A stretch of DNA of 56,306 bases, from the NCBI GenBank assembly GCA_040752415.1, contig JBFMGU010000032.1:1-56306 (forward strand). The letters are read 5' to 3'. The notes under the pieces were generated by a model. The model did not search any database and had not been told where the DNA came from. It saw only the letters and a program-made list of their open reading frames with translations. The stretch comes from Myxococcota bacterium (lineage in GTDB: Bacteria > Myxococcota > JACRCW01). The position numbers were made by a program, and so were the translations under genes. Position 1 is the stretch's first letter. The number at the start of each line of letters is the position of its first letter. Shown piece after piece: positions 8,997 to 32,010 of the stretch.

Positions 8997-9011
8997 GGTG
9001 GCCGGAGGTTT

Positions 9012-9911: not shown

Positions 9912-9914
9912 CGC

Positions 9915-11901: not shown

Positions 11902-11906
11902 CCAGG

Positions 11907-13472: not shown

Positions 13473-13504
13473 GCCAGCTCCACCCTCCTTCCTTCCCGCG
13501 CCAT

Positions 13505-13525
13505 TATTGCAACGCTGTCGCAATA
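13505..13525. promoter_or_regulatory. Putative Zur/Fur-family operator
   Basis: TATTGCAACG-C-TGTCGCAATA, a 10-1-10 palindrome with 8/10 matches and a TTGCAAC-N3-GTCGCAA core. AT-rich within GC-rich DNA, 33 bp upstream of the barrel gene, overlapping a minus-strand AATAAT -10-like hexamer. Confidence 0.65.
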
Positions 13526-13547
13526 TCTCCCGAAGCCGGTTCTCCGG

Positions 13548-14417
13548 TCAAGTGCGCCTGCGGATGACCGCGGAGGCCATGGCCAGCCCGCACATGACGC
13601 AGGCCAGGAAGGTCTGGGATCCGCCGACGGGAAAACGCAGGAAGAACGCGAACAGGTACCCGCCGCCGCCCGCCACCATCCCCAGCAGCGGCGCCAGGAT
13701 GAACACCACGTTCATGCGACCGCTGAGCGCCAGCGCGGTCATGGCGGGGAGCACACTGAAGGCAAACACGCTGAGCGCGCCAATGGCATGGGTGGTGACC
13801 GCCACCGCCACGCCGATGGAGAGGAAGAGGAACAGGTTGAGCGCCCGCACCGGGAGGCCCTGCACGCGCGCGCTCTCCTCGTCAAAGCTGGTGAACACCA
13901 GTCCGCGCTTGAGCAGCAGGTGCGCGCCCATGAGCAGCACGGTGGTGACGATGGTGAGGTGGAAATCCAGCTCCCGCACGACGACACCGGGCCCGAACAG
14001 CACCGCCTGGATGTCGTGGGCCTCCTGGGTGATGCGGTCCCCGGCCATCACCGCGCCCGCGCTGCCAAAGAGGTAGCCCAGTCCCAGCAGCCCTTCGCGC
14101 GTGAGCCGCATGCGCTCGGGGTTGAAGGTGAAGAACCCCATGGCGAGCAACGCGCAGACCAGGGCGCCCGCCACCGGCTCGGCCAGCGCGTGGGGAATCC
14201 ACTCATACATGTCCAGCAGGAACACCAGCGAGACGCCGAGCGCGGAAGCCTGGCTCACCGCGGCGGAGACGAACACCGTGCGACGCAACACGATGTACAC
14301 GCCGAGGTAACCGAGCAGCACCCCGGCGAGCATCCCGGTGATGACGGGGTCACGGAACAGGTCCCAGCTGTCCAGGAACTCCTGCAGCGTGGGCGTGGGC
14401 GTCTCGGCGGGATTCAT
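13548..14417 (-). CDS. znuB: Zn/Mn ABC transporter permease
   Basis: LGVYIVLRR..FVSAAVSQASALG, VLFG, FDEESARVQG, IGALSVFAF; multiple TM segments; ATGA overlap with znuC. Confidence 0.9.
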   Translation of the reverse strand: MNPAETPTPTLQEFLDSWDLFRDPVITGMLAGVLLGYLGVYIVLRRTVFVSAAVSQASALGVSLVFLLDMYEWIPHALAEPVAGALVCALLAMGFFTFNPERMRLTREGLLGLGYLFGSAGAVMAGDRITQEAHDIQAVLFGPGVVVRELDFHLTIVTTVLLMGAHLLLKRGLVFTSFDEESARVQGLPVRALNLFLFLSIGVAVAVTTHAIGALSVFAFSVLPAMTALALSGRMNVVFILAPLLGMVAGGGGYLFAFFLRFPVGGSQTFLACVMCGLAMASAVIRRRT

Positions 14418-15193
14418 GTGTGCGGTCCTCCCGCCTTGCGTCGCTGGAAGTGGTCCAGCTCGACGAGCAGCTCATGCGCCTTCTCCTGCCCGTACAGCCG
14501 CGCGAACTGTTCATGGCCCAGCACCTCCCGCGGGGTGCCGGCAAGCACGGTGCGACTGGTGCGGTCCACGAAGATGACCTGCTCGGCATACTCCGCCGCC
14601 ACGCTGAGCTCGTGGGTCACCATCACCACGGCCATCTTGCGGTCCCGGCGCACGCGGTCCACCAGGCTGAGCATCTCGCGCTCCGCCACCACGTCCATGG
14701 CGCTGGTGGGCTCATCCATGAACGCCACTTCCGGTCGGGAGACCAGCGCGCGCGCGAACAGCACCCGCTGCTTCTGGCCCTCGCTGAGGGAGCGGAAGGA
14801 CTGGTCGCGCAGCTTCCACACGTCCACCGCGTCCATGGCGAGCTTGAGCTCGTCGTAGTCCAGGCCGCTGCTGCCCCAGAAGTTGAACCCGTTGAGGGCA
14901 CCCATCCTCACCACGTTGATGGCGGTGAGGGGATAGATGGGGTCGTAGTGCAGGCGCTGCGGGATGTAGGCCACCTTGAGGCCGGGAGCGTGCATCACCT
15001 GTCCGCTGACGGGCGGGATGAGGCCCAGCACGGTCTTGAACCACGTGCTCTTGCCCGACCCGTTGCGCCCCACCACCACGCAGAACACGCCGCGGTGCAC
15101 GTCCACCTCGATGGGCGGAAGCATGGCCACGCCGTCGTAACCCACCTGCAAGCCGCGGCAATCAATGAGGACGTTGGGATCCTGGATGCTCAT
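14414..15193 (-). CDS. znuC: Zn/Mn ABC transporter ATP-binding protein
   Basis: Walker A GRNGSGKST, YIPQ, signature variant LSEGQKQR, Walker B FMDEP, VTHE. Confidence 0.9.
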   Translation of the reverse strand: MSIQDPNVLIDCRGLQVGYDGVAMLPPIEVDVHRGVFCVVVGRNGSGKSTWFKTVLGLIPPVSGQVMHAPGLKVAYIPQRLHYDPIYPLTAINVVRMGALNGFNFWGSSGLDYDELKLAMDAVDVWKLRDQSFRSLSEGQKQRVLFARALVSRPEVAFMDEPTSAMDVVAEREMLSLVDRVRRDRKMAVVMVTHELSVAAEYAEQVIFVDRTSRTVLAGTPREVLGHEQFARLYGQEKAHELLVELDHFQRRKAGGPHT

Positions 15194-16182
15194 CAGTGCC
15201 GGTGCCCGCGCTTGTGACCCTTCCCGTGGTGGTCATCGTCATCGTCGTCATCGTCGTGGCCGGCCCCCACGCTCACCGGCTCGCGCGCGTCGTGGTCATG
15301 GTCCTCGTCGGGAAGCGGCTGGGTGAAGCGCTGTCCGCCCACCTCCAGCGTGAAGGACTGGCAGCCCTTGGGCACCGTGAAGTTCAGCACCGCGGGCAGG
15401 CGGGACTCATACACCTTCAGCACCTTGCCCTTGTCGTCGTAGATGGTGCCGCCCGCGGCCACGGTCATGGTCTCGTCCACCAGCACCGCCACCAGCTCCG
15501 CCATCTCCTCCATGCGGTCCGCCACGCGGTGACACCACAGGTGGCCCACGCCGGGGTACTCGTCGTGGCAGATCTCCTCCATCTGCTTCTCGTCCACCTG
15601 GTCACCCACGCCCACGAGGATGAAGTTGAGGCGCGGCAGGCGCCCCGCGGCAATCTCCTTGGCCACCTGCGTGCTGTAGGCGCGGACGTCGGCGGCGTCG
15701 TGGAGCTGGCTGTCGGTGATGATGACGGCCAGGCCGCGGCGCGCGCCCTTGCTGACCTGCTGGCGGATGAACTGGACGTAGTCGCGCAGCACGGGGAGCA
15801 GCACGGTGGCCTTCCCGTAGAAGCGCGGCCCGGGGAACTTGTAGCTCTTGGCCTGGTTCCCGTTGAGGTCGCCCACCACCTCGAGCTGGCTGCCGTCGCC
15901 GGTGGCCCAGTAGGCCACGCGCAGCACGCCGTCGCGGTCCTTGGTGGCCAGGTACTCCAGCATCCACTGCATCTGCGGTTCCACCTGGTTGCGGACCCCG
16001 CCCAGCTTGGCCAGCACGCCGCGTGGACCGTACTCGTCCTCCATGCTGGCGGAGCCGTCCATGTACAGCGCCACGTCCAGTCCCTCGACGGTGGGGTCGT
16101 GCAGGAGCGTGGCGGTGACGTTGCCGTCCCTGTTGTGGACGTCCGAAAACGGCTTGACGATGACTTCGTGCTTGTGACCCAT
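15193..16182 (-). CDS. vWA (MIDAS) domain protein with His/Asp-rich C-terminal tail, paralogue 1
   Basis: MIDAS-like LYMDGSASM ... T ... IITDS; NFILVGVG; tail DEDHDHD...HDDDDDDDDHHGKGHKRGHRH; stop overlaps znuC start (TGATG). Confidence 0.8.
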   Translation of the reverse strand: MGHKHEVIVKPFSDVHNRDGNVTATLLHDPTVEGLDVALYMDGSASMEDEYGPRGVLAKLGGVRNQVEPQMQWMLEYLATKDRDGVLRVAYWATGDGSQLEVVGDLNGNQAKSYKFPGPRFYGKATVLLPVLRDYVQFIRQQVSKGARRGLAVIITDSQLHDAADVRAYSTQVAKEIAAGRLPRLNFILVGVGDQVDEKQMEEICHDEYPGVGHLWCHRVADRMEEMAELVAVLVDETMTVAAGGTIYDDKGKVLKVYESRLPAVLNFTVPKGCQSFTLEVGGQRFTQPLPDEDHDHDAREPVSVGAGHDDDDDDDDHHGKGHKRGHRH

Positions 16183-16476
16183 GGGGCGCCTCGCCGGTTG
16201 GGCCCCTCGTACCACAAACGGCCCGCGAGGCCATGGGCGGGACGGCGGGCTTTCCGCTGGCCAGCGCCGTACCGACCGCTCTCCGACGCTACCGCCCGTC
16301 CACCGGCTCGAGCTGATGCCGCGTCGGTCCGGATCCCGCCGCCACGTCTCTGTCAAGCAAGCTCACCCGAAGGCACCCAGAGCTCCTTGCGGGCCTGACG
16401 CCACCGTTCGTCAACGACAAGCTTCAATTCCGACGGCAGCGTTGTTTGTATTGACCAGATGAGACTCAGATTAGGA

Positions 16477-17220
16477 TTAGGGGCAGGCGAAGGTCGGGTG
16501 GGCGCCGGCATCCGCTGATTCCTCACCACAGAGCAGTGGTTGCTCTTGATAGGATGAAACACACGCCAGTTCGGGGGCTGCGCACTCGCCGCCCAGGCAT
16601 GCTGCGGCCACAAAGGAATAGCTGCCGACGTCCCACACGAAGTCGTTGCCCGAGCTGAGCCTTTCGTATGTGGTTGCGCAACAGCACCGCGTGGCTGCGC
16701 AGTCCCGTGCGACCTGGCACGGGGCACCCGCCGCAGCCCCATCCGATTCCCAGGACCCTCCATCGCTGATGGATTGCCACCACAGAACGCCGCCATCGCT
16801 TGCCAGCGGCCTGGTGAACATCATGCTGATGCTCGCGTCCTGGAGTTGATGTTTCAGCACCTGGAGATGGCATGTCACGTGGGCGCCAGTGGGGTCCGAC
16901 AGGGTGATCGCGCCACAGTATCCCTCGCAACGTCCGGTATCGGGAACGGTGGCCTCATAGTGGATGCGACCAGCGTCGTCGCTGAAGACGCGCTCCGACC
17001 CGCACTCCATCTGGATGCCCGCAAGCCGGAATCCGGTGCCCCGTTCGATAACGACAAAGTCCCGAACGACGTCGAATGGTCCACATTCCGAGTAACCATG
17101 GCAGAGGTCACATCCAGAGCTTGGGCCCGCGCACGCGCGGCACGACGCGCACGCGACCATGACGATGGTGATGATCGCCTTGGCAAAGGGGGCGGAAGGT
17201 GAGTCAAGAGAAGACTTCAT
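16477..17220 (-). CDS. Cys-rich secreted/lipoprotein-like hypothetical protein
   Basis: Hydrophobic N-terminus followed by CASCRAC; many Cys; codon usage visibly less GC3-biased than neighbours. Confidence 0.5.
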   Translation of the reverse strand: MKSSLDSPSAPFAKAIITIVMVACASCRACAGPSSGCDLCHGYSECGPFDVVRDFVVIERGTGFRLAGIQMECGSERVFSDDAGRIHYEATVPDTGRCEGYCGAITLSDPTGAHVTCHLQVLKHQLQDASISMMFTRPLASDGGVLWWQSISDGGSWESDGAAAGAPCQVARDCAATRCCCATTYERLSSGNDFVWDVGSYSFVAAACLGGECAAPELACVSSYQEQPLLCGEESADAGAHPTFACP

Positions 17221-17302
17221 TCATGTCCCCCGTTGATGCAGTCACTCCTTATGGCCGCGTTCCCGTCACGTGGCGACCGCGCAACCCGTGAGGGCCCATG
17301 GC

Positions 17303-18301
17303 TCAGCCCTTTGGGCAGTGCCCACTTCGCGTGTACGCACAAGACTCCCGCCAGACGCGGCGCAACCCATCGCGATCCCACGTTCCCTTCTCGATGTCGT
17401 AGCATCCCGCAATCCGCCTCGCGGAGCTGAAGTCACCGAGCCACTCCAGTGTGTTCCGGAGGCGTCGTGCCACCAGCACATCCTCTTCCTCCCTGAATGC
17501 TCTTTCCATCCTCGCCACCTTCCACGCGGTAAGACGCGCCCTTCTGCTTTGCGGACACAGGACGCCAACGCGACCCTCATCGGCGTCGGTCGGAAACCGG
17601 AGGAACGCATCGACAATGGCGAGCCTTTGGGTGCGCGACAGCTCCAACGCCAGCGCGCCATCCCTTCCACCCAACCACAGCTCGTCCAGCGCAAGCGTTC
17701 GCGTCGTCGGCAACTCCGCCAATTCCGTCAGGGCTCCAACGAGGTACTCATCATCCCAATCGTCTTTGTACCAACCGTGATGCAGCTTCCTCACCGCGAC
17801 GACCTCTGCTGCATTCGGTGATGACACATCAATCTGTCCCTGCAACTCCAGCGTGGCGCCATAGGCCATGAAACTCAGCCTGCGGTCGCCCACTGGTGGC
17901 GCGCCTTTGCTGGCCGCTGCGTGCCGCAAAGTCACCAACGACGTCGCGTCGATTCGCCCCCTGATCAGCTCGAGTACCCGGTAGGCAACCCGCCACTCAC
18001 GTCGGTGCGGCTCGCAAGCGAACTCACGCATGACGACCACCCTCCGGCGCCAGAGACAAGTCCCGCCGTCCCCAGAGCACTCCTCGTCGACGGACTCGCA
18101 TGACGGGTCCAATTCGACGGGGACCACGAGGTCCTGCACCGCAACGACTTCAAGAACTGCGATCACATCCGCTCTGGAGATCCGCTCGGTCAGAAGCCAG
18201 GTCCCGCGGCGGGATGCGTGTGCTCCATCCGGGAGGAGAGAAGCCCACAGAATGAGCGCGACGGCCACAGCACAATAGCGGGCGTCGTTGGGCGTCGGCA
18301 T
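17303..18301 (-). CDS. Secreted hypothetical protein (beta N-domain, helical C-domain)
   Basis: Signal peptide ending GAHA, then LTERISRADVIAVLEV; atypical codon usage; start taken at ATG 18301. Confidence 0.55.
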   Translation of the reverse strand: MPTPNDARYCAVAVALILWASLLPDGAHASRRGTWLLTERISRADVIAVLEVVAVQDLVVPVELDPSCESVDEECSGDGGTCLWRRRVVVMREFACEPHRREWRVAYRVLELIRGRIDATSLVTLRHAAASKGAPPVGDRRLSFMAYGATLELQGQIDVSSPNAAEVVAVRKLHHGWYKDDWDDEYLVGALTELAELPTTRTLALDELWLGGRDGALALELSRTQRLAIVDAFLRFPTDADEGRVGVLCPQSRRARLTAWKVARMERAFREEEDVLVARRLRNTLEWLGDFSSARRIAGCYDIEKGTWDRDGLRRVWRESCAYTRSGHCPKG

Positions 18302-18386
18302 CACAGGTCGAAGCGTGCGTTCCTCGCACTTTGAGCACAACAAGACGCTTGTCCGATTGCCCTACAGCGGATCCCACTCGGATTGA

Positions 18387-18561
18387 CCGGGGAGGTGATG
18401 ACCCCTGGCCACGGAATCGCAGACAAGAATGGCTGCGCCACGGGGAATTTTGCCGTCGCTCCCGTAAGCCCACCGGCATTGGTTGTCGAAGCGGGTTCAC
18501 TGGACCGTGGCGCAGCCATTTGTGTCTGCGATTCCGTGGCCCGGGGCCATCACTTCGCCGG
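18387..18561. repeat. REP-like inverted-repeat doublet
   Basis: 18387-18443 is the imperfect reverse complement of 18505-18561. Each arm contains GTGG-cgcag...ctgcg, a short internal hairpin. Confidence 0.85.
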
Positions 18562-18627
18562 TGTGTGGTTCACCCAACGAAGACGACGTCATCGGGCGCC
18601 CAGCCTGATCGGGAACCGCTGTGAGGC

Positions 18628-20046
18628 TCAAGCGCGAGAGAGGGCACCCCCACCAGCATTCGTCGCGCGCAACGCCACCAGCTGCTGCTCCCGGTCATCC
18701 CGGTAGAACATGTTGTACGTGTCAAACGGGATGATCCGCCCGTCAGGATGCACGATGTGCACGCAGGTCTTCTTTACCGAGCGCACGTCGAAGTTGTGGG
18801 GATCCAGGAACTGCATGATGAGCACGCGGAACACGTTCTCGTACGTGATGCCTTCGGGCACCTGCACGGGCGGGAGGCAGCACAGCAGGTTCGTCAGCGC
18901 CGCGGTGGAGCTCTCCGGCGAGTGTGACGTCGAGAACAGCCGGAACACGTGGTCACGCAGCGAAGGGCTGCGCTCGTAGATGATCGTGTTGCGCTCGCCA
19001 CGGAGAAGCACCTCGGGGTCCACCATGCGCGTGAGCGGCAACACCTGCCCTTCCACCTTCAACGCGTAGCCCATCGCCAGACAGTCGGGATGGCAGGGCA
19101 CGGGAATGACGTCGGCGGGCTGGAACACGTCCCATTGCTCCAGGATGTTCCGTCGCACCTCCGAGAGGGTGAGCCGATCGGTGGCGGGGTTGAAATGCTC
19201 CAGGCGCCCCGCGGACTGGATGGGCTGGAACGTCACGCCGCGCACACACCGCTGCTGCACCGCGTAGCGCAGGAGGTCACCCACCTCGTCGTCATTGAGG
19301 CCCTTCTGGAGCGTGACCACCAGCGTGGTGGAGATGCCCAGCTCATTGAGCCGCTCCACCGCCTTCCGACGCACCTCCCGCAGGTCCGCGCCCCGCAACG
19401 TGCGCAGCGGTCCCTCGCGCAGCGAATCAAACTGCAGGTACACCTCGAAGCCCTTGCGGTACGTCGAGAGCCGCTCGGCGAACGCAGCGTCATTGGCAAT
19501 GCGGATGCCGTTGGTGTTGAGCATCAGGTGCTTGATGGGCCGCGCCTTGGCCGCGTCCATGATGCGGAAGAACTCCGGGTGCAGCGTGGGCTCTCCGCCG
19601 CTGAGCTGCACCACGTCGGGCTCGCCCTCGTTGCGCACCACGCAGTCCAGCATGTGCTCCACCTGCTCCAGCGTGCGGTGGGTCTGCCGCGACGGCGAGG
19701 AATCCGCGTAGCAGACCGGACACGTGAGGTTGCAGTGGTCGGTCACCTCCACCAGCGTCAGGCAACTGTGCTGTTCGTGGTCGGGACACAGGCCGCAGTC
19801 ATAGGGACAGCCGTGCTGGATGGTGGTGTTGAAGCGCAGCGGCACCTGCGCCGGCTTCAGGAAGCTGCGACACAGTTTGTAGTAGTCGACGTCGGTGGAG
19901 ATGAGCACGCGCTCGCTGCGATGCGTGGGACACCACTTGTGCAGGTAGACGTTGCCGTCCTGGAAGATGACCTTGGCTTCCACCTTGGTCAGGCACGTCG
20001 AGCAGACGCTGTTGGTCAGTTCGTAGAACAGGTACGGCCGGTCCAT
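18628..20046 (-). CDS. Radical SAM protein, tetraether synthase (Tes/MJ0619)-like family
   Basis: N-terminal CSTC...CPTH, GCPYDCGLCPDH, rSAM motif CNLTCPVC, SGGEPT, NTNG, YLQFD, CHPDC, C-terminal DPHNFD...CVHIVHPDGRIIPF. Confidence 0.85.
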   Translation of the reverse strand: MDRPYLFYELTNSVCSTCLTKVEAKVIFQDGNVYLHKWCPTHRSERVLISTDVDYYKLCRSFLKPAQVPLRFNTTIQHGCPYDCGLCPDHEQHSCLTLVEVTDHCNLTCPVCYADSSPSRQTHRTLEQVEHMLDCVVRNEGEPDVVQLSGGEPTLHPEFFRIMDAAKARPIKHLMLNTNGIRIANDAAFAERLSTYRKGFEVYLQFDSLREGPLRTLRGADLREVRRKAVERLNELGISTTLVVTLQKGLNDDEVGDLLRYAVQQRCVRGVTFQPIQSAGRLEHFNPATDRLTLSEVRRNILEQWDVFQPADVIPVPCHPDCLAMGYALKVEGQVLPLTRMVDPEVLLRGERNTIIYERSPSLRDHVFRLFSTSHSPESSTAALTNLLCCLPPVQVPEGITYENVFRVLIMQFLDPHNFDVRSVKKTCVHIVHPDGRIIPFDTYNMFYRDDREQQLVALRATNAGGGALSRA

Positions 20047-20087
20047 GGTCCTTCCCGCTCCGACGGTGGTATCCGTCTCCCCATAGC

Positions 20088-20822
20088 ATGCACCCGGTCC
20101 TCTTCCACGTCGGAGCAACGCCGGTTCCGTCGTACGCGGTGATGGTGGGGCTGGGATTCCTGGCCGCGTGGCTCATCCGTCGTGCGGAGGTGCGTCGGCT
20201 GGGGCACGCGCGACAACCGGGCTACCTCTGGGTGGGCGTGGGCTGTCTGCTGGGTGCCATGCTGGGGTCCAAGCTGGGCATGCTGCTGTTTGAGCCGCCC
20301 GAGGACTTCGCGCGCCTGCTGGCGCAGATGACGTCGTGGGATTTCTCCGGGAAGACGGTGGTGGGCGGGCTGGCCGGCGGCTACGTGGGTGTGGAGGTGG
20401 CCAAGAAGCTGGTGGGCATCACCACGTCGACGGGTGACGCGTTCGCGGTCGCGGTGCCCGCGGGTCAGGCACTGGGGCGCGTGGGGTGTCTCCTCGAGGG
20501 ATGCTGCTACGGCACGACCTGGAACGGGCCGTGGGCCATCCACCTGCACGGCGCGCTGCGACATCCCGTGCAAGCCTACGAAGCGGTGATGGACCTGGCT
20601 CTCGCCGCGATGCTCTTCACCATCCGTCGACAAACCCGGCCCGCGGGGCACCTCTTCAAGGTGTATCTCGTCGGATACGGGATGACGCGGTTTCTCCTGG
20701 AGTGGCTGCGTGGTGATCCGGCACTCACGTGGGCAGGTCTCACCTTGGTGCAGTGGGTCTGCCTGGCCGCGGTGATCGGCTTTGGCCGTCGGGTGTGGGG
20801 ACGGAAGCTCGTCGGAGCTTGA
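20088..20822 (+). CDS. Lgt-family (prolipoprotein diacylglyceryl transferase-like) membrane protein
   Basis: MHPVLF..G...SYAVM, GKTVVGGLAGG, GRVGCLLEGCCYG, HPVQAYE, RFLLEWLR. Confidence 0.85.
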   Translation: MHPVLFHVGATPVPSYAVMVGLGFLAAWLIRRAEVRRLGHARQPGYLWVGVGCLLGAMLGSKLGMLLFEPPEDFARLLAQMTSWDFSGKTVVGGLAGGYVGVEVAKKLVGITTSTGDAFAVAVPAGQALGRVGCLLEGCCYGTTWNGPWAIHLHGALRHPVQAYEAVMDLALAAMLFTIRRQTRPAGHLFKVYLVGYGMTRFLLEWLRGDPALTWAGLTLVQWVCLAAVIGFGRRVWGRKLVGA

Positions 20823-20896
20823 CCCTCCGCCGCACGCCACCTATCGACGTCACGCGGCGCCCGACGACACGCCGCCCAGCTGTGGAGGACGACGGG

Positions 20897-21832
20897 ATGA
20901 CTCGCCGACGAAGCAGCGAACGTGAACCCTTCGCCAGTGGCCGCACCCGTTCCTGGCTGGGCTGGGTCGTCGTGATGAGCGTGCTTGCGGGTCACGCGTC
21001 GCATGCCCATGCGCAGGCAGCGGCCCCTCCTCCGGAGCAACCCGCGCCGACACCGGAGCCTCCGGTCGTCGAGACACCTCCGGAGCAACCTGCGACGCCG
21101 GAACAACCCGCCTCTCCGCCCGCCGACGACACCGAGGAGCTCCCCTCCCTGGGCGTCCCCGAAGAGCCCGCGCCGCCACGTCGTGAGGAACCTCCCGTCA
21201 GCGTCCCGCCGCCGCCGTCGTTGTGGGACACCGAGCTGAAACCCGTGGCGACCTTCACACTGGTTCCCGTTGTGGCCGGGATGCTGGGCATGCTCTCCGG
21301 CGCATTGGCGGGAGCAGTGCTGTCCGCGGCGCTGGTGATTCCCTCCGCGTTGATGGTCCGCTTCGCCACGCCGTCACGGGAGATCTCCACGACGGGGATC
21401 TTCACCTTCTTCGCCGCGCCCCCCGTGTGCGCGTGGGCCGGCGCCATGGCGGGTTACCTCGTGGCTCGCGCGGTGGGAGCGGCAATGACGCCGGTGCAGC
21501 TACCTGATCGTGCGTCGCGCGGCGCCCGGGTTGCCACCTTTGCCGCCACCGACCTCCTCGCCCATCTCGTCGTGTTCATCCCCTTGGTGGCGCTGACGGT
21601 GGCCTTTGGCGCCGCCATGGGATGGACCTCAGGCGCGTTGTCGAGCGCGTCGCAGCCGTTCTTCGTCGTGGGACAACCCACCCCGCGACAAATCATGTTC
21701 GTCACCGGCGCGTTCTACACATTGCTCGCGGCCATGGTCGTGTGGCCCGCCGCGGCCGCCGTGGTGCAGCTCATCACGCCTGTCGCCTCCCTCGTGCTCT
21801 CCGGCGTCGTTGCGGAAGGTGGTGCCCCGTGA
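20897..21832 (+). CDS. Membrane protein: signal peptide, Pro/Glu-rich linker, several TM helices
   Basis: GGAGG before ATG 20897; signal ending AHA; PPEQPA repeats; about four long hydrophobic segments. Confidence 0.65.
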   Translation: MTRRRSSEREPFASGRTRSWLGWVVVMSVLAGHASHAHAQAAAPPPEQPAPTPEPPVVETPPEQPATPEQPASPPADDTEELPSLGVPEEPAPPRREEPPVSVPPPPSLWDTELKPVATFTLVPVVAGMLGMLSGALAGAVLSAALVIPSALMVRFATPSREISTTGIFTFFAAPPVCAWAGAMAGYLVARAVGAAMTPVQLPDRASRGARVATFAATDLLAHLVVFIPLVALTVAFGAAMGWTSGALSSASQPFFVVGQPTPRQIMFVTGAFYTLLAAMVVWPAAAAVVQLITPVASLVLSGVVAEGGAP

Positions 21833-22797
21833 GCGTGCGTGCAGCGGTGTTGACCATCTGCCTGTTGACGCCGCCCTCGGCGTGGGCCACCGCCGACGTG
21901 ACCGATGCACCGCCCCCGTCGGAGACCGCTCCCACCATGCCGGAGCTGCAGCCTGCTCCCGCGCCCACGCCGGAAAAGCCTGACGACGCCACGCCCACCA
22001 ACGAGGCAGCACCTGCGCGTCCTTCCCCTCCCTCCCCGACGACACCACCCGACCCACGTTGGTGGCGTGCTCCGCGTTGGCTGCGGCTGTGGGCATCTTT
22101 GGCTTCGGTGGCGGCGCCCACGGCGGTGGTGGTTGGTGTTGCGGGCGCCGCGGTGCTGGGCACCTGGGGCTTGGTGGCTGCGCTCCTGGGGCCGGGTCTG
22201 GTGGATGCGGGAAGTCGTGGGGACTCGCAGGCCGCGTGGCAGGGGCTCTACCCGGTCCTTCCCTTCGTGACGCTCGCGGCGTTCGTGACGGCAGTCATTG
22301 GCGCCATGGCCGTGATCGGTTACCTCGGCGTGCACCTGGTGGGGCCCATGCTCGCGCCGTTTCCCGACGAGGACGGGCTCGCGGTGCCGCGCTTGCGACG
22401 CGGCGTGGTCTTCCTGCTGCTCGACGCCATCATCCACGTGGCCGCGTTTGCGGTGAGCGCGGTTGGCGGCGTGGTGGGCGGTGGAGCGCTGGGCGGACTG
22501 CTGGCGTTCCTCATCACGCTCACGCCCTACACGGTGTGCCTGCCCTTCCTGCTTCCCGTCGGAATCCTGTTCTCGGTGCCGCCGGAATACGGGTGGCCCA
22601 ATCCCGCCGCGATCTACGCGCTGACCGCCATCCCGGCGTACATGGTGCTGTGTGGCGGCGGCGTGTTGGGTGGCGCGCTGGTGGCCGCGCAGTTTGGTAC
22701 TCCCGTCGTCACGCTGCTGCTCCTGGAACGCACGTGGAGTCTACCGCCCACGTTCCCACCGCCCTCCGAGGAGACAACGGATGACCTCGAGCCCTGA
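21829..22797 (+). CDS. Membrane protein with the same architecture as the upstream gene
   Basis: GTGA overlap with the previous stop; signal ending AWA; Pro-rich linker; multiple hydrophobic segments. Confidence 0.65.
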   Translation: MSVRAAVLTICLLTPPSAWATADVTDAPPPSETAPTMPELQPAPAPTPEKPDDATPTNEAAPARPSPPSPTTPPDPRWWRAPRWLRLWASLASVAAPTAVVVGVAGAAVLGTWGLVAALLGPGLVDAGSRGDSQAAWQGLYPVLPFVTLAAFVTAVIGAMAVIGYLGVHLVGPMLAPFPDEDGLAVPRLRRGVVFLLLDAIIHVAAFAVSAVGGVVGGGALGGLLAFLITLTPYTVCLPFLLPVGILFSVPPEYGWPNPAAIYALTAIPAYMVLCGGGVLGGALVAAQFGTPVVTLLLLERTWSLPPTFPPPSEETTDDLEP

Positions 22798-23227
22798 TCC
22801 CTTCCGCGTCGGCGTGGGTCCCCGCGCCGTGGCCTCCATCCTCGGCGTGGTGGCGGTGGCGTATTTCGTGTGGTGGGGCTGCTTCGCGGGAGTGCTGCCA
22901 CTCGCGGATTCCTGCGGTGGGCTGTGTTGCCCGGAGTGTCAGTGCTGCACGTCGCCCACGTCGGATTCCATGGCCTACTGCAGTCAGCCGGGCGAGAAGT
23001 GCAAGATCGAGTGCGAGAACCCCGGCACGTTCTTCTTCTGCACCTGTCCCGAGACCGGACTCGCCGACACCTGCTTCTGCCAGCAGGACGGCACGTATGA
23101 GCCGTGTGTCCACACGTGCGACTCGCCCGGAGTCACCGGTGAGTGCGTGTGTGTCACCGGCGTGGGACCCGGAACGTGCACCTGTGGTGACGACGGAACG
23201 TATGACCCGTGCCTGCTCCGCGGCTGA
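22781..23227 (+). CDS. Membrane-anchored Cys-rich protein (148 aa, 21 Cys) with an internal duplication
   Basis: GAGGAG before ATG 22781; one TM ending WWGC; two copies of C-x2-PG-x4-CxC-x7-TCxC-x2-DGTY-x-PC. Confidence 0.7.
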   Translation: MTSSPDPFRVGVGPRAVASILGVVAVAYFVWWGCFAGVLPLADSCGGLCCPECQCCTSPTSDSMAYCSQPGEKCKIECENPGTFFFCTCPETGLADTCFCQQDGTYEPCVHTCDSPGVTGECVCVTGVGPGTCTCGDDGTYDPCLLRG

Positions 23228-23270
23228 GTGAAGGGGACATGGGCTCAGCCCGTCAAATGACGACGGCGCA

Positions 23271-24575
23271 TCACGCCGCAAGTACACGCATCCGGTAGGG
23301 CAATACCTGGGCAATGCGCGGGATGGCGTAGGGCGTGCGGAGCAGCGGCGCGTCCACCGTGAGCTCAACGTGGCGCACCACCGCACAGATGACGACGAGG
23401 AAGTGGAGCTCGGCGAGCTGCTGGCCGGTGCACTTGCGCGGTCCGTGCAGGAACGGGACGAACGAGAACGGCTCGCGCGGCTGCGGCGTGGCCCAGCGGT
23501 CCGGGTCGAACTCGTCGGGGCGGTCCCAGAAGTCGGGATGATGGTGCAGCGCGTAGAGCATGAGCGCCACCTCCTGCGCCGCGGGGAAGGTCTGCCCGTC
23601 GTGCTCGAACGCGGCTCCCGCCCGGCGCAGCACCGCCATGGCCACGGGATAGCGACGGAGGACCTCGAGGAAGAAGCGCTGCACGTCGGGAAGGCGTCCG
23701 AGGTCGTCGTGCACAGGGCCCGCTTCCCCGAGGACGCGCGTCACCTCGTCACGCAGACGCTGCTGCCACGCGGGGCGCCGCGCAAGCTCGTGCAGCGCGC
23801 ACGTCACGACGTAGTCGATGGCATTGAACGCGCCGTAGATGTGGTTGAGCGCATCGGTGGCCTCGGGAAGGCCGAAGTCCGCGCCGGCGATGTCACGCAT
23901 CCAGCCGGGACGGTCAGGGGCGCCAGCGTCGCGCAGCGTGGCCACGGTGTCCCGCATCCGGCGGACCATGCGCGACTCCTCCCAATAGTTGTGCAGGAGC
24001 ATCGGCAGGTGGAGCAGCTTCTCCAGGCCCATGCCCAGGAGGTCCAGTCGACGTCGCGGATCCTGGTTCATGGTGTGTGACTTGTAGTCCAGCAGCTGGC
24101 GGGCGTAGCGGCACACCGCGGGCTCGTCGACGCGCAGGCCGTAGCCCACGTGCAGCACGGTGTTCACGCCCAGCTCCACCATGTCACGGTAGAGGTCTGC
24201 GCGTGGCGTGCCATCGGAAAGCGCGCGCAGGTGCTGGACGGTGTGTGCGTGCATCCACGCCGCGTGCGACGAGAGCTGGCTCGCCTTGAACGCCGGCTGC
24301 ACGGCGCGGGTCTGCCGCAGCCAGCTCTCGCCGTCGCGGAAGAGGACGCCGTCGGCGCCGGGCAGGTTGCGGAGGAACTGGTAGACGCGCGACCGCTTCT
24401 CGGTGTGGACGCGCTCCAGGAGAACGGTGCGCACCAGCGCCGGGTCGCAGGTGTACAGCGTCCCGCCGCTGAGGAACGACTTGCCATGCTCCACGCAGGC
24501 CTGACCCCAGCCGGCGTGGCCGTGCTGACGCATCAACGCGGACAGCTGTGACGACGAGACGCTGGGGATCGTCAT
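23271..24575 (-). CDS. Cytochrome P450 (atypical I-helix)
   Basis: Heme motif FLHGPRKCTG, ExxR EVLRRYP, PDEFDPDRW; I-helix HIYGAFNA; ATGA coupling to the upstream P450. Confidence 0.92.
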   Translation of the reverse strand: MTIPSVSSSQLSALMRQHGHAGWGQACVEHGKSFLSGGTLYTCDPALVRTVLLERVHTEKRSRVYQFLRNLPGADGVLFRDGESWLRQTRAVQPAFKASQLSSHAAWMHAHTVQHLRALSDGTPRADLYRDMVELGVNTVLHVGYGLRVDEPAVCRYARQLLDYKSHTMNQDPRRRLDLLGMGLEKLLHLPMLLHNYWEESRMVRRMRDTVATLRDAGAPDRPGWMRDIAGADFGLPEATDALNHIYGAFNAIDYVVTCALHELARRPAWQQRLRDEVTRVLGEAGPVHDDLGRLPDVQRFFLEVLRRYPVAMAVLRRAGAAFEHDGQTFPAAQEVALMLYALHHHPDFWDRPDEFDPDRWATPQPREPFSFVPFLHGPRKCTGQQLAELHFLVVICAVVRHVELTVDAPLLRTPYAIPRIAQVLPYRMRVLAA

Positions 24576-25837
24576 GGGACAGCCTCGAAGGTGAGCGGCA
24601 GTGCGTTGCGAAAGCGCGGCGCCAGGAAGATGTGCAGCGGGGGATCCTCGTCGCGCGCGTGGACGCGGGCGCGCCGGACCACGCTGGCCACCACCTCGGA
24701 CAGCACCAGCTCGGCAAGCGTCTGTCCCACGCACTTGCGAGGTCCAACGAGAAACGGGATGAACGCGCCCTCCACCACGACGTCACCGCGCAGCCAGCGC
24801 TCGGGCTGGAATTCGTCCGGGTGCCTCCACGACGCGGGATCGTGGTGCAGCGCGTGCACGAGGAGGAGCAGCTCCGTGCCCGCGGGCAGCCTCTCCCCCT
24901 CGACGTCGACCGGCGCGCCGGTGCGGCGTGCCACCGCCATGGTGACCGGGTGACACCGCAGCACCTCCCGGACAAACGCGCGCACCCGGGGGATGTCCCA
25001 CGCACGCTCCGGGCCGCGCGTGACGTCGCCATGAAGCACCGGGAGCAGCTCGGGGTGTCGTCCGAGCCGGAGCAGCGCGCAGCTCACCACGAAGGGCAGC
25101 GCGTCATAGGCCCAGAACAGATGCGAAATGGCGCTATCCGCGTCCGGCGATGCCAGGGCGCCGCCCAACCGCCCCAACCAACTGTCATCCGGCGGGGTCC
25201 CGTCGGGAACCAGGGCGCGTCGCTGAGCCTGGTAGTCCCGGAACGTCCGAAGCGACCGGAGGACCAGGCCAGGGAGCTGCGTGAGGGCCTGGCCGGCGCG
25301 GATGTGCGGGTCGTCAAAGCGGAAGCGCGGGTCGTGCTGCGTGTCCAGCCAGCGACGGAGCGCGCCGATGAGCTCCGCGCCCCCCGAGCCCCCAGGCACG
25401 AGGCCGAATGCCAGCGAGACGAAGAGATCCGCGCCGAGCTGGATGCATGACTCGCGCGCGTCAGTCAGGGTGCCCTGCTGGCACCAGCGTCCCACGTGGT
25501 CGTCCACGACGCGGGCCACGCGCGACGAGATGGCGTGCACGTGCGGGCGCGAGAAAACCGGGAGCAGCGCACGCGCCTGCTTCTTCCAAGCCTCGCCGTC
25601 GACAAACACCATGCCCCTCTGGCCCGGCATCCACCGCGACAGCAGCTTGTAGACGACGGGGCGTTCGCGGATGTGCTCGCGGCCCATGAGCACCTCATGG
25701 ACCACCCGCGGGTCCGCCGTTGCCACGAAGGGCCCGAGCCGGAAGGTGCGCCCGTTGGCGTCGACGATGTCACGCCAGGCCGCCGGACCGCGTGCGTGCA
25801 GCGCGGACTTGAGGTCGGCGTTGGCAACGGACTTCAT
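24572..25837 (-). CDS. Cytochrome P450 (atypical I-helix)
   Basis: Heme motif FLVGPRKCVG, EVLRCHP, PDEFQPERW; I-helix HLFWAYDA; starts 8 bp after the fusion gene stop. Confidence 0.92.
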   Translation of the reverse strand: MKSVANADLKSALHARGPAAWRDIVDANGRTFRLGPFVATADPRVVHEVLMGREHIRERPVVYKLLSRWMPGQRGMVFVDGEAWKKQARALLPVFSRPHVHAISSRVARVVDDHVGRWCQQGTLTDARESCIQLGADLFVSLAFGLVPGGSGGAELIGALRRWLDTQHDPRFRFDDPHIRAGQALTQLPGLVLRSLRTFRDYQAQRRALVPDGTPPDDSWLGRLGGALASPDADSAISHLFWAYDALPFVVSCALLRLGRHPELLPVLHGDVTRGPERAWDIPRVRAFVREVLRCHPVTMAVARRTGAPVDVEGERLPAGTELLLLVHALHHDPASWRHPDEFQPERWLRGDVVVEGAFIPFLVGPRKCVGQTLAELVLSEVVASVVRRARVHARDEDPPLHIFLAPRFRNALPLTFEAVP

Positions 25838-25845
25838 GGCGAGAC

Positions 25846-28077
25846 TCAGTAGTGGCGTTCCAGGAGGTACCAGCCAAACGCGCGCAGGTAGATCTTCGTG
25901 GTTGATTCCACGACGAGCGGGTCAAGCGCGGCCCACGCCTCTTCCACCATGGTGCGCGCCTGCTCCTCACAGGCCTTCAGCGCGCCGCAGTCCTCCATGA
26001 GCCGGATGGCCTGCCCAATCGTCGTCGTCGCGGTGGGCCGGGACTGCAGGATTTCCCACAGCTGGTGGCGGGCCGGGCGCTCCAGCTTGCCCATGGCCTT
26101 GGCCACCGGCGCGGTGATCTTGCCCTCGGTGATGTCCTCGCCGCGCGTCTTGAGGCCGCCCTGGAAGCCGCGCAGGTTCAGCACGTCGTCAATGATCTGG
26201 AACGCGGTGCCGTACGCCTCGAACAGCCGGCCCAGCGCCTCCACCTGCGCATCGTTCGCGCCGGCCATCAACGCCGCAATGCGCGCGAGGTTGGCGGGCG
26301 GCACGCCTGACTTCAGCCGGTGCGTTGCGAGCACGCTGGCTTCCAGGCTCGTGGCGTCGCCACTTTCAACAACGGACGGCAAGCGGTGCCACTGGCCGGA
26401 AATGTCCATCGCCTGGCCCGCGTGCGCGGCGCGCAGCGCCTCAAAGTAGCTCTCGTAGATGCGGAGAACCACGCGGTCGGGCAGCTTCTCCCGCAGCAGC
26501 GGAAGCTGCGCGAGGAACATGCAGGCGCTGCCCGCATTGATGGCCAGCGGCTCACCGTGCACCTTGTGGCAGGACGCCCCCCCGCGCCGGACCACGGAAC
26601 GGTCCTGCACGTCGTCGATGATCAGCGACCCGGTGTGGAGGATCTCGGGCACCGCGAGCCAGTGCGCGTACTGCTGCGAATCACCGCCCACGACATCCAT
26701 GGCCGCCAGGAGCGCGTAGGAACGCCACGCCTTGCCACCGCGGGTGACAATCTCGCGAACCGGCGTGACGACGTGGCGGTGGTACTGCGCCAGGTCCATC
26801 CCCTCGGTGAAGTGCTCGTGCCCCGGGTCGGAGACCAGGCGCGCGAGCTGGGGCGAATCCGCCGTTGGAGGAAGGAGCTGGTCGACCGCCTGACGCGTGG
26901 CGCGGCCAACGGCCTCGAAGAAGCGGTCCTGGGTCTCGACGTTGTTGAACCCGCTGCGCTCAACGAAGCCGAGCCCACCGACGCTCCTGCCGCCCATGGT
27001 CCCCTTGAGGCGCATGCGACCCTCCCAGAACGCGGGCGGGCTGATCAGCGTGGGGAACTCCTGCGCGTTGAACTCGGCACTGACGTCCACGTCGAGCTGC
27101 AGCCCGGGGACCGCGAGGTGGTAGCGCACCGGGTAGTCATTGAACGTGCGCGTGCTGGTCCACCGCGTGCCCTCGGTGAGCGAGAACTCACTGTGCTGGC
27201 TGCGGTTGCCCTGCGGGTCGACGACGATGAGCCAGTGGCCGATGCTCCTGCCTCCACCCTCGACGTCAAAGAGGTCGTACGCGCTGATGTCGTAACCGTT
27301 GTCGAGCTGGGCGCTCAGCCAGTTCCACGCCACGCTGCCAATCCGTCGCGCCTCCTTGCGTTCGTCGGCGGGACGGCCGAACTCGTGGTCGTACCAGCCC
27401 ATGCCCTTCGTGACCGGCAGGGTGGCACCCTCGACGAGCACGGAGCCCTCCACCCGGCAGCGCGGCGTGAAGTAGTAGAACATGTCCTCCGCGGACGCGC
27501 CCACCACCTGCCCTTCGTCACCGTGGCGGACCATGGGCTTCTCGGGCGTGAACACCAGCCGCGCGCCGTGCTTGCCGTCCTCGTGGAGGAGGTCCAGCGC
27601 GTAGCTTCCCTCGGGAGTCTTGTGCAGGCGGCAGGTGCCAAACCGCAGGTCCATCACCGACGGGTCGACCACGGGATTGACGTCAAAGAGACGATCCGGG
27701 CGAGGAACCGTCTTCCGCTGCAACACCTCGGCCATGGCGCGGCGGAGCCGTTCATCCCGCGTCCCTTCACCCCGGTTGAGACGCTCCAGCGTCACGTCGG
27801 GCGCGCAGCGGTCCAGCACCGGGTCCATGACGTAGCGGTGCCGTTGCACGTCAACCAGGGCCCAGGTCACCGAGTGCGAGTGGATGGGCGCGCCACGCTT
27901 GTCCTTGCCGACCACCATCCGGAAGAAGGACGCAAAAACCGAGAACGGCCGCCCGTCCTCCGTCTCAAGGTGGCTGTTGAGGTACCACCACTCCAGCGTC
28001 GAGGATTCGTGCGGCAGATCCTGGACGGCAAGATCAATTGGACCGGCTCCTGGCCAGTCCGCGGGGCGCTGATTCAC
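25846..28077 (-). CDS. Fusion: AttH/CrtC-like (lipocalin-like double barrel) domain + trans-isoprenyl diphosphate synthase (GGPPS-like)
   Basis: aa 1-375: EWWYLNSHL, YYFTPR, GWYDHEFG, WNWLSAQLDNG, YPVRY, FWEG, GFVE. aa ~380-743: GGKAWR, LHTGSLIIDDVQDRSVVRRG, GQAMD, LKSG, FQIIDDVLN, EDITEGK. Confidence 0.88.
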   Translation of the reverse strand: MNQRPADWPGAGPIDLAVQDLPHESSTLEWWYLNSHLETEDGRPFSVFASFFRMVVGKDKRGAPIHSHSVTWALVDVQRHRYVMDPVLDRCAPDVTLERLNRGEGTRDERLRRAMAEVLQRKTVPRPDRLFDVNPVVDPSVMDLRFGTCRLHKTPEGSYALDLLHEDGKHGARLVFTPEKPMVRHGDEGQVVGASAEDMFYYFTPRCRVEGSVLVEGATLPVTKGMGWYDHEFGRPADERKEARRIGSVAWNWLSAQLDNGYDISAYDLFDVEGGGRSIGHWLIVVDPQGNRSQHSEFSLTEGTRWTSTRTFNDYPVRYHLAVPGLQLDVDVSAEFNAQEFPTLISPPAFWEGRMRLKGTMGGRSVGGLGFVERSGFNNVETQDRFFEAVGRATRQAVDQLLPPTADSPQLARLVSDPGHEHFTEGMDLAQYHRHVVTPVREIVTRGGKAWRSYALLAAMDVVGGDSQQYAHWLAVPEILHTGSLIIDDVQDRSVVRRGGASCHKVHGEPLAINAGSACMFLAQLPLLREKLPDRVVLRIYESYFEALRAAHAGQAMDISGQWHRLPSVVESGDATSLEASVLATHRLKSGVPPANLARIAALMAGANDAQVEALGRLFEAYGTAFQIIDDVLNLRGFQGGLKTRGEDITEGKITAPVAKAMGKLERPARHQLWEILQSRPTATTTIGQAIRLMEDCGALKACEEQARTMVEEAWAALDPLVVESTTKIYLRAFGWYLLERHY

Positions 28078-28244
28078 GTGTTGTTTCTCGGCAGGCTTGA
28101 GGCGTGAGACCGGCGTGCATCGTGCCGGCCTAACACATTAGGCGCGGGAGGTTAACCACGGCGTCAAGCCCGCTGTCAACAGAATTCGCTTGCCCGTTGG
28201 TGGCGGGACAGTGCAAGAAGCTGAGCAATTGCACGAGGATATTG

Positions 28245-31827: not shown

Positions 31828-32010
31828 AACAACCTCGGCAATGCAGCTCGGCCAGCTCCCAAGGGAATGCCAACGCGGACTTGGGTTTGTGAGCGGTCTC
31901 ATCCCCCTGCTGTGGTGCGGCCGTCAAGGATCATGAGGCCCGCCGTGTGACCCGGACCCGCACCGCCCGGGAAACCACCTGGCAACGAACAACGCGTTAG
32001 ACTGACCGTC

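Follow-up and report, generated by a model that had tools for sequence, protein, structure and literature searches.

The archaeal tetraether synthase Tes (also GDGT-MAS; M. jannaschii MJ0619) is an enzyme of the radical S-adenosylmethionine (SAM) type that couples lipid tails, and Lgt is the bacterial membrane enzyme that modifies lipobox cysteines. Described here is a locus in which relatives of these two enzymes are encoded next to one another, at positions 18628-23227 of a 56,306-nucleotide stretch of a Myxococcota bacterium genome (assembly GCA_040752415.1, contig JBFMGU010000032.1, positions 1 to 56,306 of the forward strand; hereafter the window). The contig has a G+C content of 69% and the genome is ~11 Mb in size. 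The locus comprises five genes, which encode a Tes-like radical SAM enzyme (rSAM), a divergent Lgt-family membrane protein (Lgt-like), two polytopic membrane proteins (mem1 and mem2) and a Cys-rich membrane-anchored protein. The five genes very probably form one functional, conserved unit, and its chemistry is, to judge from sequence, probably directed at lipid. As an overall reading we tentatively favor a lineage-specific version of a widespread, uncharacterized bacterial membrane module that may combine transfer of lipid to a partner cysteine with radical remodeling.

The metal sites of GDGT-MAS are given, in the passages surveyed of its structural description (PMC9433317), as a rubredoxin-type site (C9X2C12X20C33X2H36), an N-terminal cluster, [4Fe-4S]N, bound by Cys73, Cys77, Cys80 and a His, the radical SAM cluster bound by CX3CX2C, and a C-terminal cluster, [4Fe-4S]C, with a labile Met439 (PDB numbering is native numbering plus 20). 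The last of these bears a C-S intermediate and captures the substrate radical, and both Met439 and Tyr459 are fully conserved among 1000 archaeal homologs. Phospholipids are bound by the enzyme, with bacterial phosphatidic acid and ester-linked bacterial lipids among them.

Bacterial relatives of the tetraether synthases have been known since 2022, without a demonstrated function in the literature surveyed (passages of main texts), and have mostly been discussed for branched tetraether lipids, which are palaeoclimate markers. One study reported such homologs and suggested that they produce branched tetraether lipids (PMC8941075). A stringent search by Sahonero-Canavesi et al. gave no Tes homolog in the first-screened producers of diabolic and iso-diabolic acid, and a Tes homolog is present in 3 of 14 acidobacterial species that produce iso-diabolic acid (PMC13159169); a 2026 review still treats the bacterial homologs as bioinformatic detections only (PMC13459092). 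For Lgt, the passages surveyed of Mao et al. (PMC4728403) describe R143, R239, E243, R246, H103, Y235 and G154 of the Escherichia coli enzyme as intolerant of, or sensitive to, mutation, place R143, Y235, R239, E243 and R246 at the diacylglyceryl C3 site, with R143 and R239 at the C3-O bond and facing the periplasm, and propose the HGGL motif as the peptide-binding site.

Conservation of the Lgt-like/rSAM pairing

Close homologs of the window rSAM number in the thousands, and 119 were listed besides the window's own entry, at 69-75% identity. A genome scan returned 535 relatives of the enzyme, of which the best 80 loci were kept; these are named as Planctomycetota, Verrucomicrobiota, Bacillota, Acidobacteriota, Gemmatimonadota, Kapaibacteria and Actinomycetota (at least seven phyla), with Paenibacillus, Brevibacillus, Tumebacillus and Clostridia among the Bacillota. 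An Lgt-like gene adjoins the rSAM gene in 73 of the 80; it mostly lies immediately upstream in the same orientation, and the stop and start codons often overlap. At least four of the seven loci without one end within ~600 bases of the rSAM gene. In the phylum of the window an orthologous rSAM was found in 17 of 401 sampled genomes (52-70% identity; one broken). With 1.5 kb of flanking sequence considered, 15 of the 16 same-phylum loci other than the window have an Lgt-like gene, in one of three placements: upstream on the same strand, divergent, or downstream.

The search of representative sequences also yielded a natural fusion of the two enzymes. P0141, a protein of 733 residues from a three-member cluster, carries an LGT domain, a zinc ribbon and a radical SAM domain in one chain, the radical SAM part being joined at the C terminus of the Lgt part. 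The C terminus of E. coli Lgt is cytoplasmic, suiting a radical SAM partner. No LGT domain was found in any of 18 longer homologs (827-2360 residues), and a 759-residue open frame at locus L090, considered as a second fusion, was rejected since that frame has no LGT domain. The pairing is kept through rearrangement and is found once as a fusion, which argues for a physical complex of the two proteins. A sequence-only reading of the window had proposed that its rSAM and Lgt-like genes belong to an undescribed module; the co-occurrence in 73/80 and 15/16 loci, together with the fusion, excludes a non-conserved pairing, and chance adjacency is rejected on the same counts.

Queries that combined Lgt-like protein, paralog or homolog with radical SAM gave, in the main texts surveyed, only work on archaeal lipoproteins and nothing on this module. 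The description of the module as new was upheld to that extent: no Lgt partner of a Tes-like radical SAM enzyme appears in the passages surveyed, and the Lgt-like/Tes-like module is undescribed in that literature.

Other arrangements were seen among more distant relatives. Three distant Tes-like paralog loci examined (32-35% identity) have no Lgt-like gene within 1.5 kb (0/3). Large genomes of one family in the phylum contain tandem pairs of distant Tes-like radical SAM genes, 31-37% identical (G302:C342:5636-9338, G251:C43:65700-69414, G304:C22:305819-309507, and others), which represent a different, uncharacterized system. TrsS-type relatives (P0279, P0124-P0133) carry a fused MobA-like NTP transferase together with an HD domain (the DVU_1551 family), and a further relative of the rSAM, P0267, is fused to DUF5714.

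The radical SAM enzyme and its C-terminal cysteine set

In Pfam the rSAM matches Radical_SAM (85.2 bits) and Zn_ribbon_HMPTM (57 bits), with Fer4_12 below threshold, and no second enzyme of its kind is present in the genome, where the next-best radical SAM match scores 63.8 bits. Its sole strong phmmer match among solved structures is GDGT-MAS (PDB code 7TOL, E 5.2e-69). An AlphaFold2 (AF2) model of good quality (predicted local distance difference test, pLDDT, 88.4; predicted TM-score, pTM, 0.89) was matched by Foldseek to 7TOM/7TOL over its full length (E 3.4e-38, TMq 0.81), the next fold being MoaA at 0.42; the peptide-modifying radical SAM enzymes SuiB, SkfB and anSME are also among the matches, at TMq 0.32-0.38. 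The model has the four domains of the GDGT-MAS fold, namely rubredoxin, N-terminal cluster, radical SAM core and C-terminal domain, and on this evidence the modeled rSAM is a full-length structural relative of Tes/GDGT-MAS.

Every motif of the Tes/MJ0619-type layout that the sequence-only reading had listed was found. The rubredoxin-type zinc ribbon (C15xxC18...C39xxH42), the N-terminal cluster motif (G79-C80-P-Y-D-C84-G-L-C87 with H90/H93, giving three Cys and a His) and the radical SAM motif (C105xxxC109xxC112, CX3CX2C) are each invariant in 120/120 orthologs. They are followed by C318-H-P-D-C322, L-L-C389-C390-L-P and D-G-R-I-I-P-F441-D442, and it is in this C-terminal part that the enzyme departs from Tes.

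The comparison of this region draws on a search of representatives that gave 8488 matches at E ≤ 1e-3, of which the best 150 were listed, 83 of at least 420 residues were classified and 75 were aligned. Columns 322, 427 and 442 (window numbering) are Cys and column 411 is Met in 11/11 Tes/TrsS representatives (one Tes and ten TrsS), and these columns plausibly correspond to the [4Fe-4S]C ligands, three Cys and a Met, of which the published passages name Met439 only. The window rSAM has C322, T427, D442 and M411 at these positions, so that two of the three Cys are gone and the Met439 equivalent is retained. In the nearest representatives (P0139, P0140 and P0141) all three Cys are absent. Tyr459 of Tes aligns with I431 in the phmmer alignment to GDGT-MAS. 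The IPFD in place of IPFC to which the sequence-only reading drew attention is a genuine departure, column 442 being Cys in 56 of the 75 superfamily representatives and in all 11 of Tes/TrsS. The same reading had taken LLCCLP for an extra of this one gene, and in that it was mistaken: C389 and C390 are invariant in 120/120 orthologs, as are C318 and C428. Judged from these alignments, LLCCLP is a clade-defining feature and the loss at IPFD is meaningful.

The rSAM scores below the cut-offs of both named families. Its best NCBIfam model is TrsS (NF045646), with 318.7 bits against a cut-off of 490, and the Tes model (NF045702) gives 279.6 bits against a cut-off of 450, with positions 2-298 of 486 aligned. 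In a FastTree phylogeny (SH-like support, midpoint root, a single true Tes row) the window enzyme falls in a 14-row clade with support of 100, and Tes (P0280) and the ten TrsS proteins in a separate 21-row clade with support of 97. The enzyme does not fall in an unrelated characterized family, and in the tree it lies outside the Tes and TrsS clade. By score and by tree it is to be assigned to neither Tes nor TrsS. Tail-to-tail coupling of the Tes type cannot simply be assumed for it, because the enzyme fails Tes membership, most clearly at the C-terminal cluster.

The Lgt-like protein

The Lgt-like protein matches the full Pfam LGT domain (PF01790; 126.6 bits, cut-off 24.9), and its AF2 model (pLDDT 91.6) has E. 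coli Lgt (PDB code 5AZB) as the sole Foldseek match at E ≤ 0.001 (E 2.9e-8, probability 1.00, TMq 0.63). The motif GRxGC...GCCYG, by which the gene was first recognized, reads GRVGC...EGCCYG, and the RHPxQxYE motif is kept. R131, G142, Y197, R201, E205 and R208 align with R143, G154, Y235, R239, E243 and R246 of the E. coli enzyme, whereas E. coli H103 of the HGGL motif aligns with a Val (TVVGGL) and N146 with C134. R131, C134, G142, Y197 and R201 do not vary among 63 paired Lgt-like proteins, whose motif is GKT[IV]VGGL (consensus GKTIVGGL).

Four LGT-family genes are present in the genome, the window copy scoring lowest on the Pfam model (126 bits versus 184, 165 and 142). None passes the TIGR00544 cut-off of 118.9, the window protein scoring 78.5 and the other three paralogs 117.9, 92.6 and 74.4. 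With three further family members present, the window gene is not the sole housekeeping lgt, a case that the sequence-only reading had itself raised. The other three paralogs also have GRxGC, which was accordingly rejected as a marker of the paired subfamily, and have YGG rather than HGG; on sequence comparison, the paired subfamily is set apart only by loss of the aromatic/His residue (GKT[IV]VGGL versus HGGL/YGG).

A small Cys-tailed membrane protein as the usual third partner

All-against-all clustering of the neighboring frames gave one other recurrent gene, encoding a small membrane protein directly after the rSAM gene. A simple screen found it in 57 of the 76 loci with at least 500 bp downstream, only two further frames having a hydrophobic tail and no Cys, and a hidden Markov model (HMM) recovered the small Cys protein in 15 of the remaining 20 loci, bringing the total to 72/80. 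Some of those recovered by the HMM lie between the two enzymes or upstream of both, or occur as several tandem copies. Invariance across the alignment of 57 sequences is confined to Met1 and one C-terminal Cys, and is partly by construction as the first screen demanded a Cys in the last 45 residues. The protein has three helices, and its Cys is preceded by a loop of basic character and a hydrophobic helix; the positive-inside rule would place this Cys near the outer face of the membrane, the side on which lipobox cysteines are modified by Lgt. The rSAM gene of a Phycisphaera genome bin (L072 9257-11696) is followed by a tandem array of four small Cys-tailed membrane proteins.

Within the phylum of the window the third position varies. 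At L094-L099 the genes are co-directional and the usual small Cys protein is present. L113, the closest same-phylum relative, has an Lgt-like protein of 50% identity and a spacer of 11 nt, and its Lgt-like gene is followed by one for an 859-residue Lnb_N-domain protein; the small Cys-protein HMM gave nothing significant here or on contig L125, described below. At L114-L117 the Lgt-like gene is followed by two conserved proteins without Pfam match, of ~135 and ~290 residues. On the available sequences, the accessory gene set is variable and Cys-bearing membrane partners are recurrent.

The ~135-residue protein of L114-L117 has the pattern WAPFHEHAVY...ENWETNDL, and the ~290-residue protein is a polytopic membrane protein with WFSHNRLFV...LDKL.APAWRDG. 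A conserved frame of 47-53 codons was also seen in these four same-phylum genomes (L114 16672-16815(-), L115 6019-6174(+), L116 6769-6909(+) and L117 4061-4219(+)), ~0.7-4.7 kb past the end of the Lgt-like operon. It encodes a single hydrophobic helix, closes with ...FVFF[IV]AVVCG and then K, RK or KW, has a third-position G+C of 0.93-0.97, and may be a detached Cys-tailed partner.

The mem1-mem2-Cys-rich block and a second five-gene locus

In the window the Lgt-like gene is followed instead by mem1, mem2 and the Cys-rich gene, none of whose products has a match in Pfam or NCBIfam. Homologs of the three were found in 0/80 loci and in 0/8 larger same-phylum loci, and the genome itself holds no paralogs of the mem1 and mem2 hydrophobic domains or of the Cys-rich protein besides themselves. 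The last of these carries 21 Cys in 148 residues, as the sequence-only reading had counted. It has a single homolog cluster among 5.8 billion proteins (P0289, 42% identical) and no match in 400 other sampled genomes of the phylum, and the protein atlas gave no usable feature match, with all structural TM-scores below 0.4. An N-terminal transmembrane helix, VAYFVWWGCFAG, is followed by CGGLCC. The helix is the best-kept stretch between the window protein and P0289, with 12 consecutive identical residues, and it is a candidate recognition or acceptor site because constraint in a protein of this sort is normally weakest in the anchor.

The two membrane proteins had been described as similar to one another. 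A direct comparison by BLASTP gives no similarity (E 8.2), and the likeness holds only at the level of profiles, where hhalign gives a probability of 73.6% and E 2.9e-5 over 62 columns, so that mem1 and mem2 are, on profile evidence, probably distant paralogs. One Cys, in PY..CL.F.LP, is conserved between mem2 and its homolog on contig L125, and the single Cys of mem1 is not conserved.

A metagenome scan with the Cys-rich alignment led to contig L125 (259 kb), which contains homologs of all five genes within 4.4 kb in a changed order (Table 1). The mem1-mem2-Cys-rich block is intact in both loci, with overlapping gene junctions; it follows the rSAM gene in L125, and so occupies the position that is usual for the small Cys protein, and follows the Lgt-like gene in the window. 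No other gene of the window has a match in L125. That L125 carries all five in changed order is good evidence, from two loci and a 1-kb fragment, for a five-gene unit in this lineage. The modular interpretation of the window thus stands as regards the recurrence of the five genes on L125 and the conserved pairing, and does not stand for mem1, mem2 and the Cys-rich protein as general parts (0/80 and 0/8 loci): as far as sequence searches reach, these three are lineage-specific, and the five-gene variant, in which they replace the usual mini-protein, is the addition made by the window.

Gene layout and neighboring features

All five frames look coding, and mem1, mem2 and the Cys-rich frame are taken as real genes, because the third-position G+C lies at 0.79-0.89 throughout (mem1 0.79, mem2 0.81, and 0.79-0.83 for these three). 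The rSAM and Lgt-like genes diverge from a spacer of exactly the length that had been noted in the sequence-only reading, and a GGAAGGA-type ribosome-binding sequence can be read just 5' of the rSAM ATG. A scan of 18300-23500 for sigma-70-like promoters gave no site.

Table 1. Genes of the five-gene unit in the window and their homologs on contig L125.
Locus	Feature	Position	Strand	Description
Window	Tes/GDGT-MAS-like radical SAM enzyme (rSAM)	18628..20046	-	472 aa; start MDRPY
Window	Divergent intergenic spacer	20047..20087	.	41 nt, from rSAM start codon to Lgt-like start codon
Window	Divergent Lgt-family membrane protein (Lgt-like)	20088..20822	+	244 aa; Pfam LGT
Window	mem1	20897..21832	+	311 aa; signal-peptide-like N terminus, Pro-rich linker, polytopic hydrophobic domain; familyless
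Window	mem2	21829..22797	+	322 aa; layout as mem1; GTG start overlapping mem1 stop
Window	Cys-rich membrane-anchored protein	22781..23227	+	148 aa, 21 Cys; start overlaps mem2 end by 17 nt
L125	rSAM	6776-8191	+	67% identical
L125	mem1	8188-9021	+	36-37% identical; directly after rSAM
L125	mem2	9018-9980	+	29-32% identical
L125	Cys-rich	9977-10411	+	43% identical
L125	Lgt-like	10407-11138	-	59% identical; convergent

Downstream of the rSAM gene, in a non-coding stretch at 18429-18519, a 13-mer (GTGGCGCAGCCAT) occurs once per strand ~66 nt apart and was matched in the terminator scan. Beyond it lie two familyless minus-strand genes (16477-18343) with a lower third-position G+C of 0.71-0.72, one of which (16477-17220) encodes a Cys-rich, secreted-looking protein of 247 residues; the overall G+C of the 16-20 kb region is 0.64, versus 0.68-0.70 in the flanks. 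The minus strand of 6312-16356 carries genes of metal homeostasis (a heavy-metal P-type ATPase, ZnuA, an ABC-3 permease and an ABC ATPase), followed by a familyless 387-residue protein with a C-terminal run of Asp and His. On the other side, convergent with the Cys-rich gene, 23271-31899 is a gene cluster, probably terpenoid, that has no match in L125. It includes two cytochrome P450s (23271-24734 and 24572-25837), a 743-residue protein that joins CrtC-like lipocalin domains to a polyprenyl synthase (25846-28077), one of 787 residues with lipase-maturation-factor (LMF1) domains (28197-30557) and a UDP-glycosyltransferase (30520-31899).

Proposed mechanism and alternatives

In the mechanism that we tentatively favor, the invariant core would be a complex of an Lgt-fold membrane protein with a cytoplasmic radical SAM enzyme bearing four metal sites. 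The Lgt-like protein would bind a glycerophospholipid at the kept R131/R201 pocket and pass a lipid moiety to the cysteine thiol of a dedicated membrane partner, the acceptor cysteine lying on a helix that crosses outward from the cytoplasm, at its outer end. The rSAM would take a hydrogen atom from the tail of a lipid that the complex holds and make a new bond, C-C or C-S, by means of a four-cysteine site (C318/C389/C390/C428) in place of the C-terminal cluster of Tes. In most lineages the partner would be the three-helix mini-protein with its invariant C-terminal Cys; in the lineage of the window this slot may be filled by the mem1-mem2 block together with the 21-Cys anchored protein, with the helix VAYFVWWGCFAG as candidate acceptor site. 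The role of the partner cysteine as the lipid acceptor is itself possible at best and somewhat doubtful. A more specific form of the mechanism is unlikely: that this is a new kind of protein lipidation, in which the Lgt paralog puts a glyceryl-lipid thioether on the partner Cys and the rSAM welds the lipid tail to a second lipid or to sulfur, so that the protein would be tied to a cross-linked, possibly membrane-spanning anchor. If true, it would mean that tail-coupling chemistry of the archaeal type had been redirected in bacteria from bulk lipids to a protein anchor.

Several points weigh against this mechanism. The five-gene form is known from two loci, the window and L125, and a 1-kb fragment, L126. 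The HMM of the small Cys protein gave nothing significant in the window (best E 1.6) and did not detect the protein in six frames of the whole genome (best E 0.022), and its profile compared with those of the Cys-rich protein and mem2 gave hhalign probabilities of 0.1% and 1.1%. Because the profiles show no similarity, equating the small Cys protein with the window block depends on a loose motif and on where the genes lie. The four-cysteine cluster site is deduced rather than seen, because the CC loop is modeled at low confidence, C389 and C390 lying in the sole internal low-confidence stretch of the model (residues 372-395, pLDDT 31-49). The replacement of the HGGL His could mean that the Lgt-like protein no longer transfers lipid to peptides. 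Finally, the active site of Lgt is periplasmic, according to the passages surveyed of PMC4728403, and the rSAM is expected to be cytoplasmic, a topology problem that on this analysis is common to every model; because the sites face opposite sides of the membrane, the two enzymes cannot act on the same atom at once.

The main alternative, which we consider rather unlikely, is remodeling of free lipid. The rSAM would couple or cyclize the acyl tails of phospholipids as Tes does; membrane-spanning or macrocyclic lipids could arise in this way from iso-branched tails, for example. The role of the Lgt-like protein would be only to extract and present the phospholipid, and the membrane proteins would be scaffolds or regulators. 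The full-length match to GDGT-MAS and the kept rubredoxin, N-terminal cluster and radical SAM sites and M411 are in its favor, and a fusion to a lipid-binding membrane protein, as in P0141, fits substrate delivery. Against it, the near-universal partner whose only invariant residue of note is a Cys is left unexplained, and many carriers, such as Paenibacillus, are not known to make membrane-spanning lipids. Also in its favor, bacterial Tes homologs have been proposed as makers of membrane-spanning lipids (PMC8941075) and GDGT-MAS binds ester-linked bacterial lipids (PMC9433317); against it, the window enzyme has lost two of the three Tes/TrsS Cys columns and the Tyr459 equivalent, and the C-terminal cluster carries the C-S intermediate in Tes (PMC9433317).

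Chemistry directed at protein or peptide is improbable. Here the rSAM would cross-link the Cys partner, in the window the 21-Cys protein, and the Lgt-like protein would lipidate it to give a lipidated, cross-linked surface protein or lipopeptide. The conserved Cys that is always present in the partner proteins would suit such a role, as would the order in L125, where the Cys-rich gene comes after rSAM, mem1 and mem2 in one string of overlapping genes; the Foldseek matches to SuiB, SkfB and anSME point the same way, though the shared radical SAM core explains them. The Pfam scan gave no peptide-maturase domain in the rSAM, however, and its full-length structural match is to a lipid enzyme; the predicted location of the Cys-rich domain is on the outer side of the membrane, whereas the rSAM would be cytoplasmic, and almost all carriers of the module are without the Cys-rich protein. 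Least probable by a wide measure is that the two genes are ordinary neighbors with no functional link, a redundant housekeeping lgt copy beside a cofactor radical SAM enzyme (e.g. a pterin methylase, after the HMPTM name), since the annotation of close homologs by some sources as 7,8-dihydro-6-hydroxymethylpterin dimethyltransferase and the presence of four LGT-family genes in the genome, all with GRxGC, are set against an adjacency kept across phyla and orientations and in a fusion, gene orders whose variety argues against a single transferred island, an Lgt-like subfamily of its own (GKT[IV]VGGL versus HGGL/YGG) and a pterin-methylase assignment of MJ0619 that Lloyd et al. could not corroborate in the passages surveyed (PMC9433317).

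Returning to the module of Lgt-like protein, rSAM and Cys-bearing partner, a large bacterial branch of the superfamily appears to do something other than Tes, because the C-terminal cluster of Tes is dismantled in it, an Lgt paralog is tied and once fused to it, and Cys-bearing membrane proteins accompany it. A lipid-modified protein as the product would make the module a new branch of bacterial lipoprotein biogenesis, and a free lipid would make it a hitherto missing route to unusual membrane lipids of bacteria. The gene set is small and testable, and the module also occurs in culturable Paenibacillus, Brevibacillus and Tumebacillus. The window and L125 add that the third component seems to be interchangeable, a three-gene block with a Cys-rich surface protein standing in for the mini-protein, which narrows the features required of the partner.

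Comparison with known systems

The rSAM shares with Tes/GDGT-MAS (7TOL/7TOM) the four-domain architecture, the CX2C...CX2H ribbon, the three Cys and one His of the N-terminal cluster, the CX3CX2C motif and the Met439 equivalent. It differs in being only ~28% identical in the structural alignment, in missing the NF045702 cut-off and in forming a separate clade; the columns of Cys427, Cys442 and Tyr459 are T, D and I, and C318, C389, C390 and C428 are new invariant residues. It is also accompanied by an Lgt-like partner, none being reported for Tes in the passages surveyed. TrsS (NF045646) is the best NCBIfam model for the rSAM and belongs to the same superfamily, but the representatives above its cut-off group with Tes, keep C322, C427, C442 and M411, and are in some cases fused to an NTP-transferase/HD protein rather than to LGT.

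With Mss of Thermotoga (Sahonero-Canavesi et al. 2022) the likeness is that of a radical SAM enzyme joining fatty-acyl tails in bacteria, in concept the closest of the bacterial functions (PMC13159169, PMC13459092). Mss is only remotely related to Tes according to its authors (PMC13159169) and is set beside the rSAM here by its description only; the published passages surveyed (PMC13159169, PMC13459092) mention no Lgt partner for it. The Lgt-like protein has the fold and the Pfam domain of E. coli Lgt (5AZB/5AZC; PF01790, TIGR00544), six of its mutation-intolerant or mutation-sensitive residues and the RHPxQxYE motif. It differs in its length (244 versus 291 residues), in a reduced head domain and a score below the TIGR00544 cut-off, in the replacement of the HGGL His by Val or Ile in the subfamily motif GKT[IV]VGGL, and in being coupled, and once fused, to a radical SAM enzyme.

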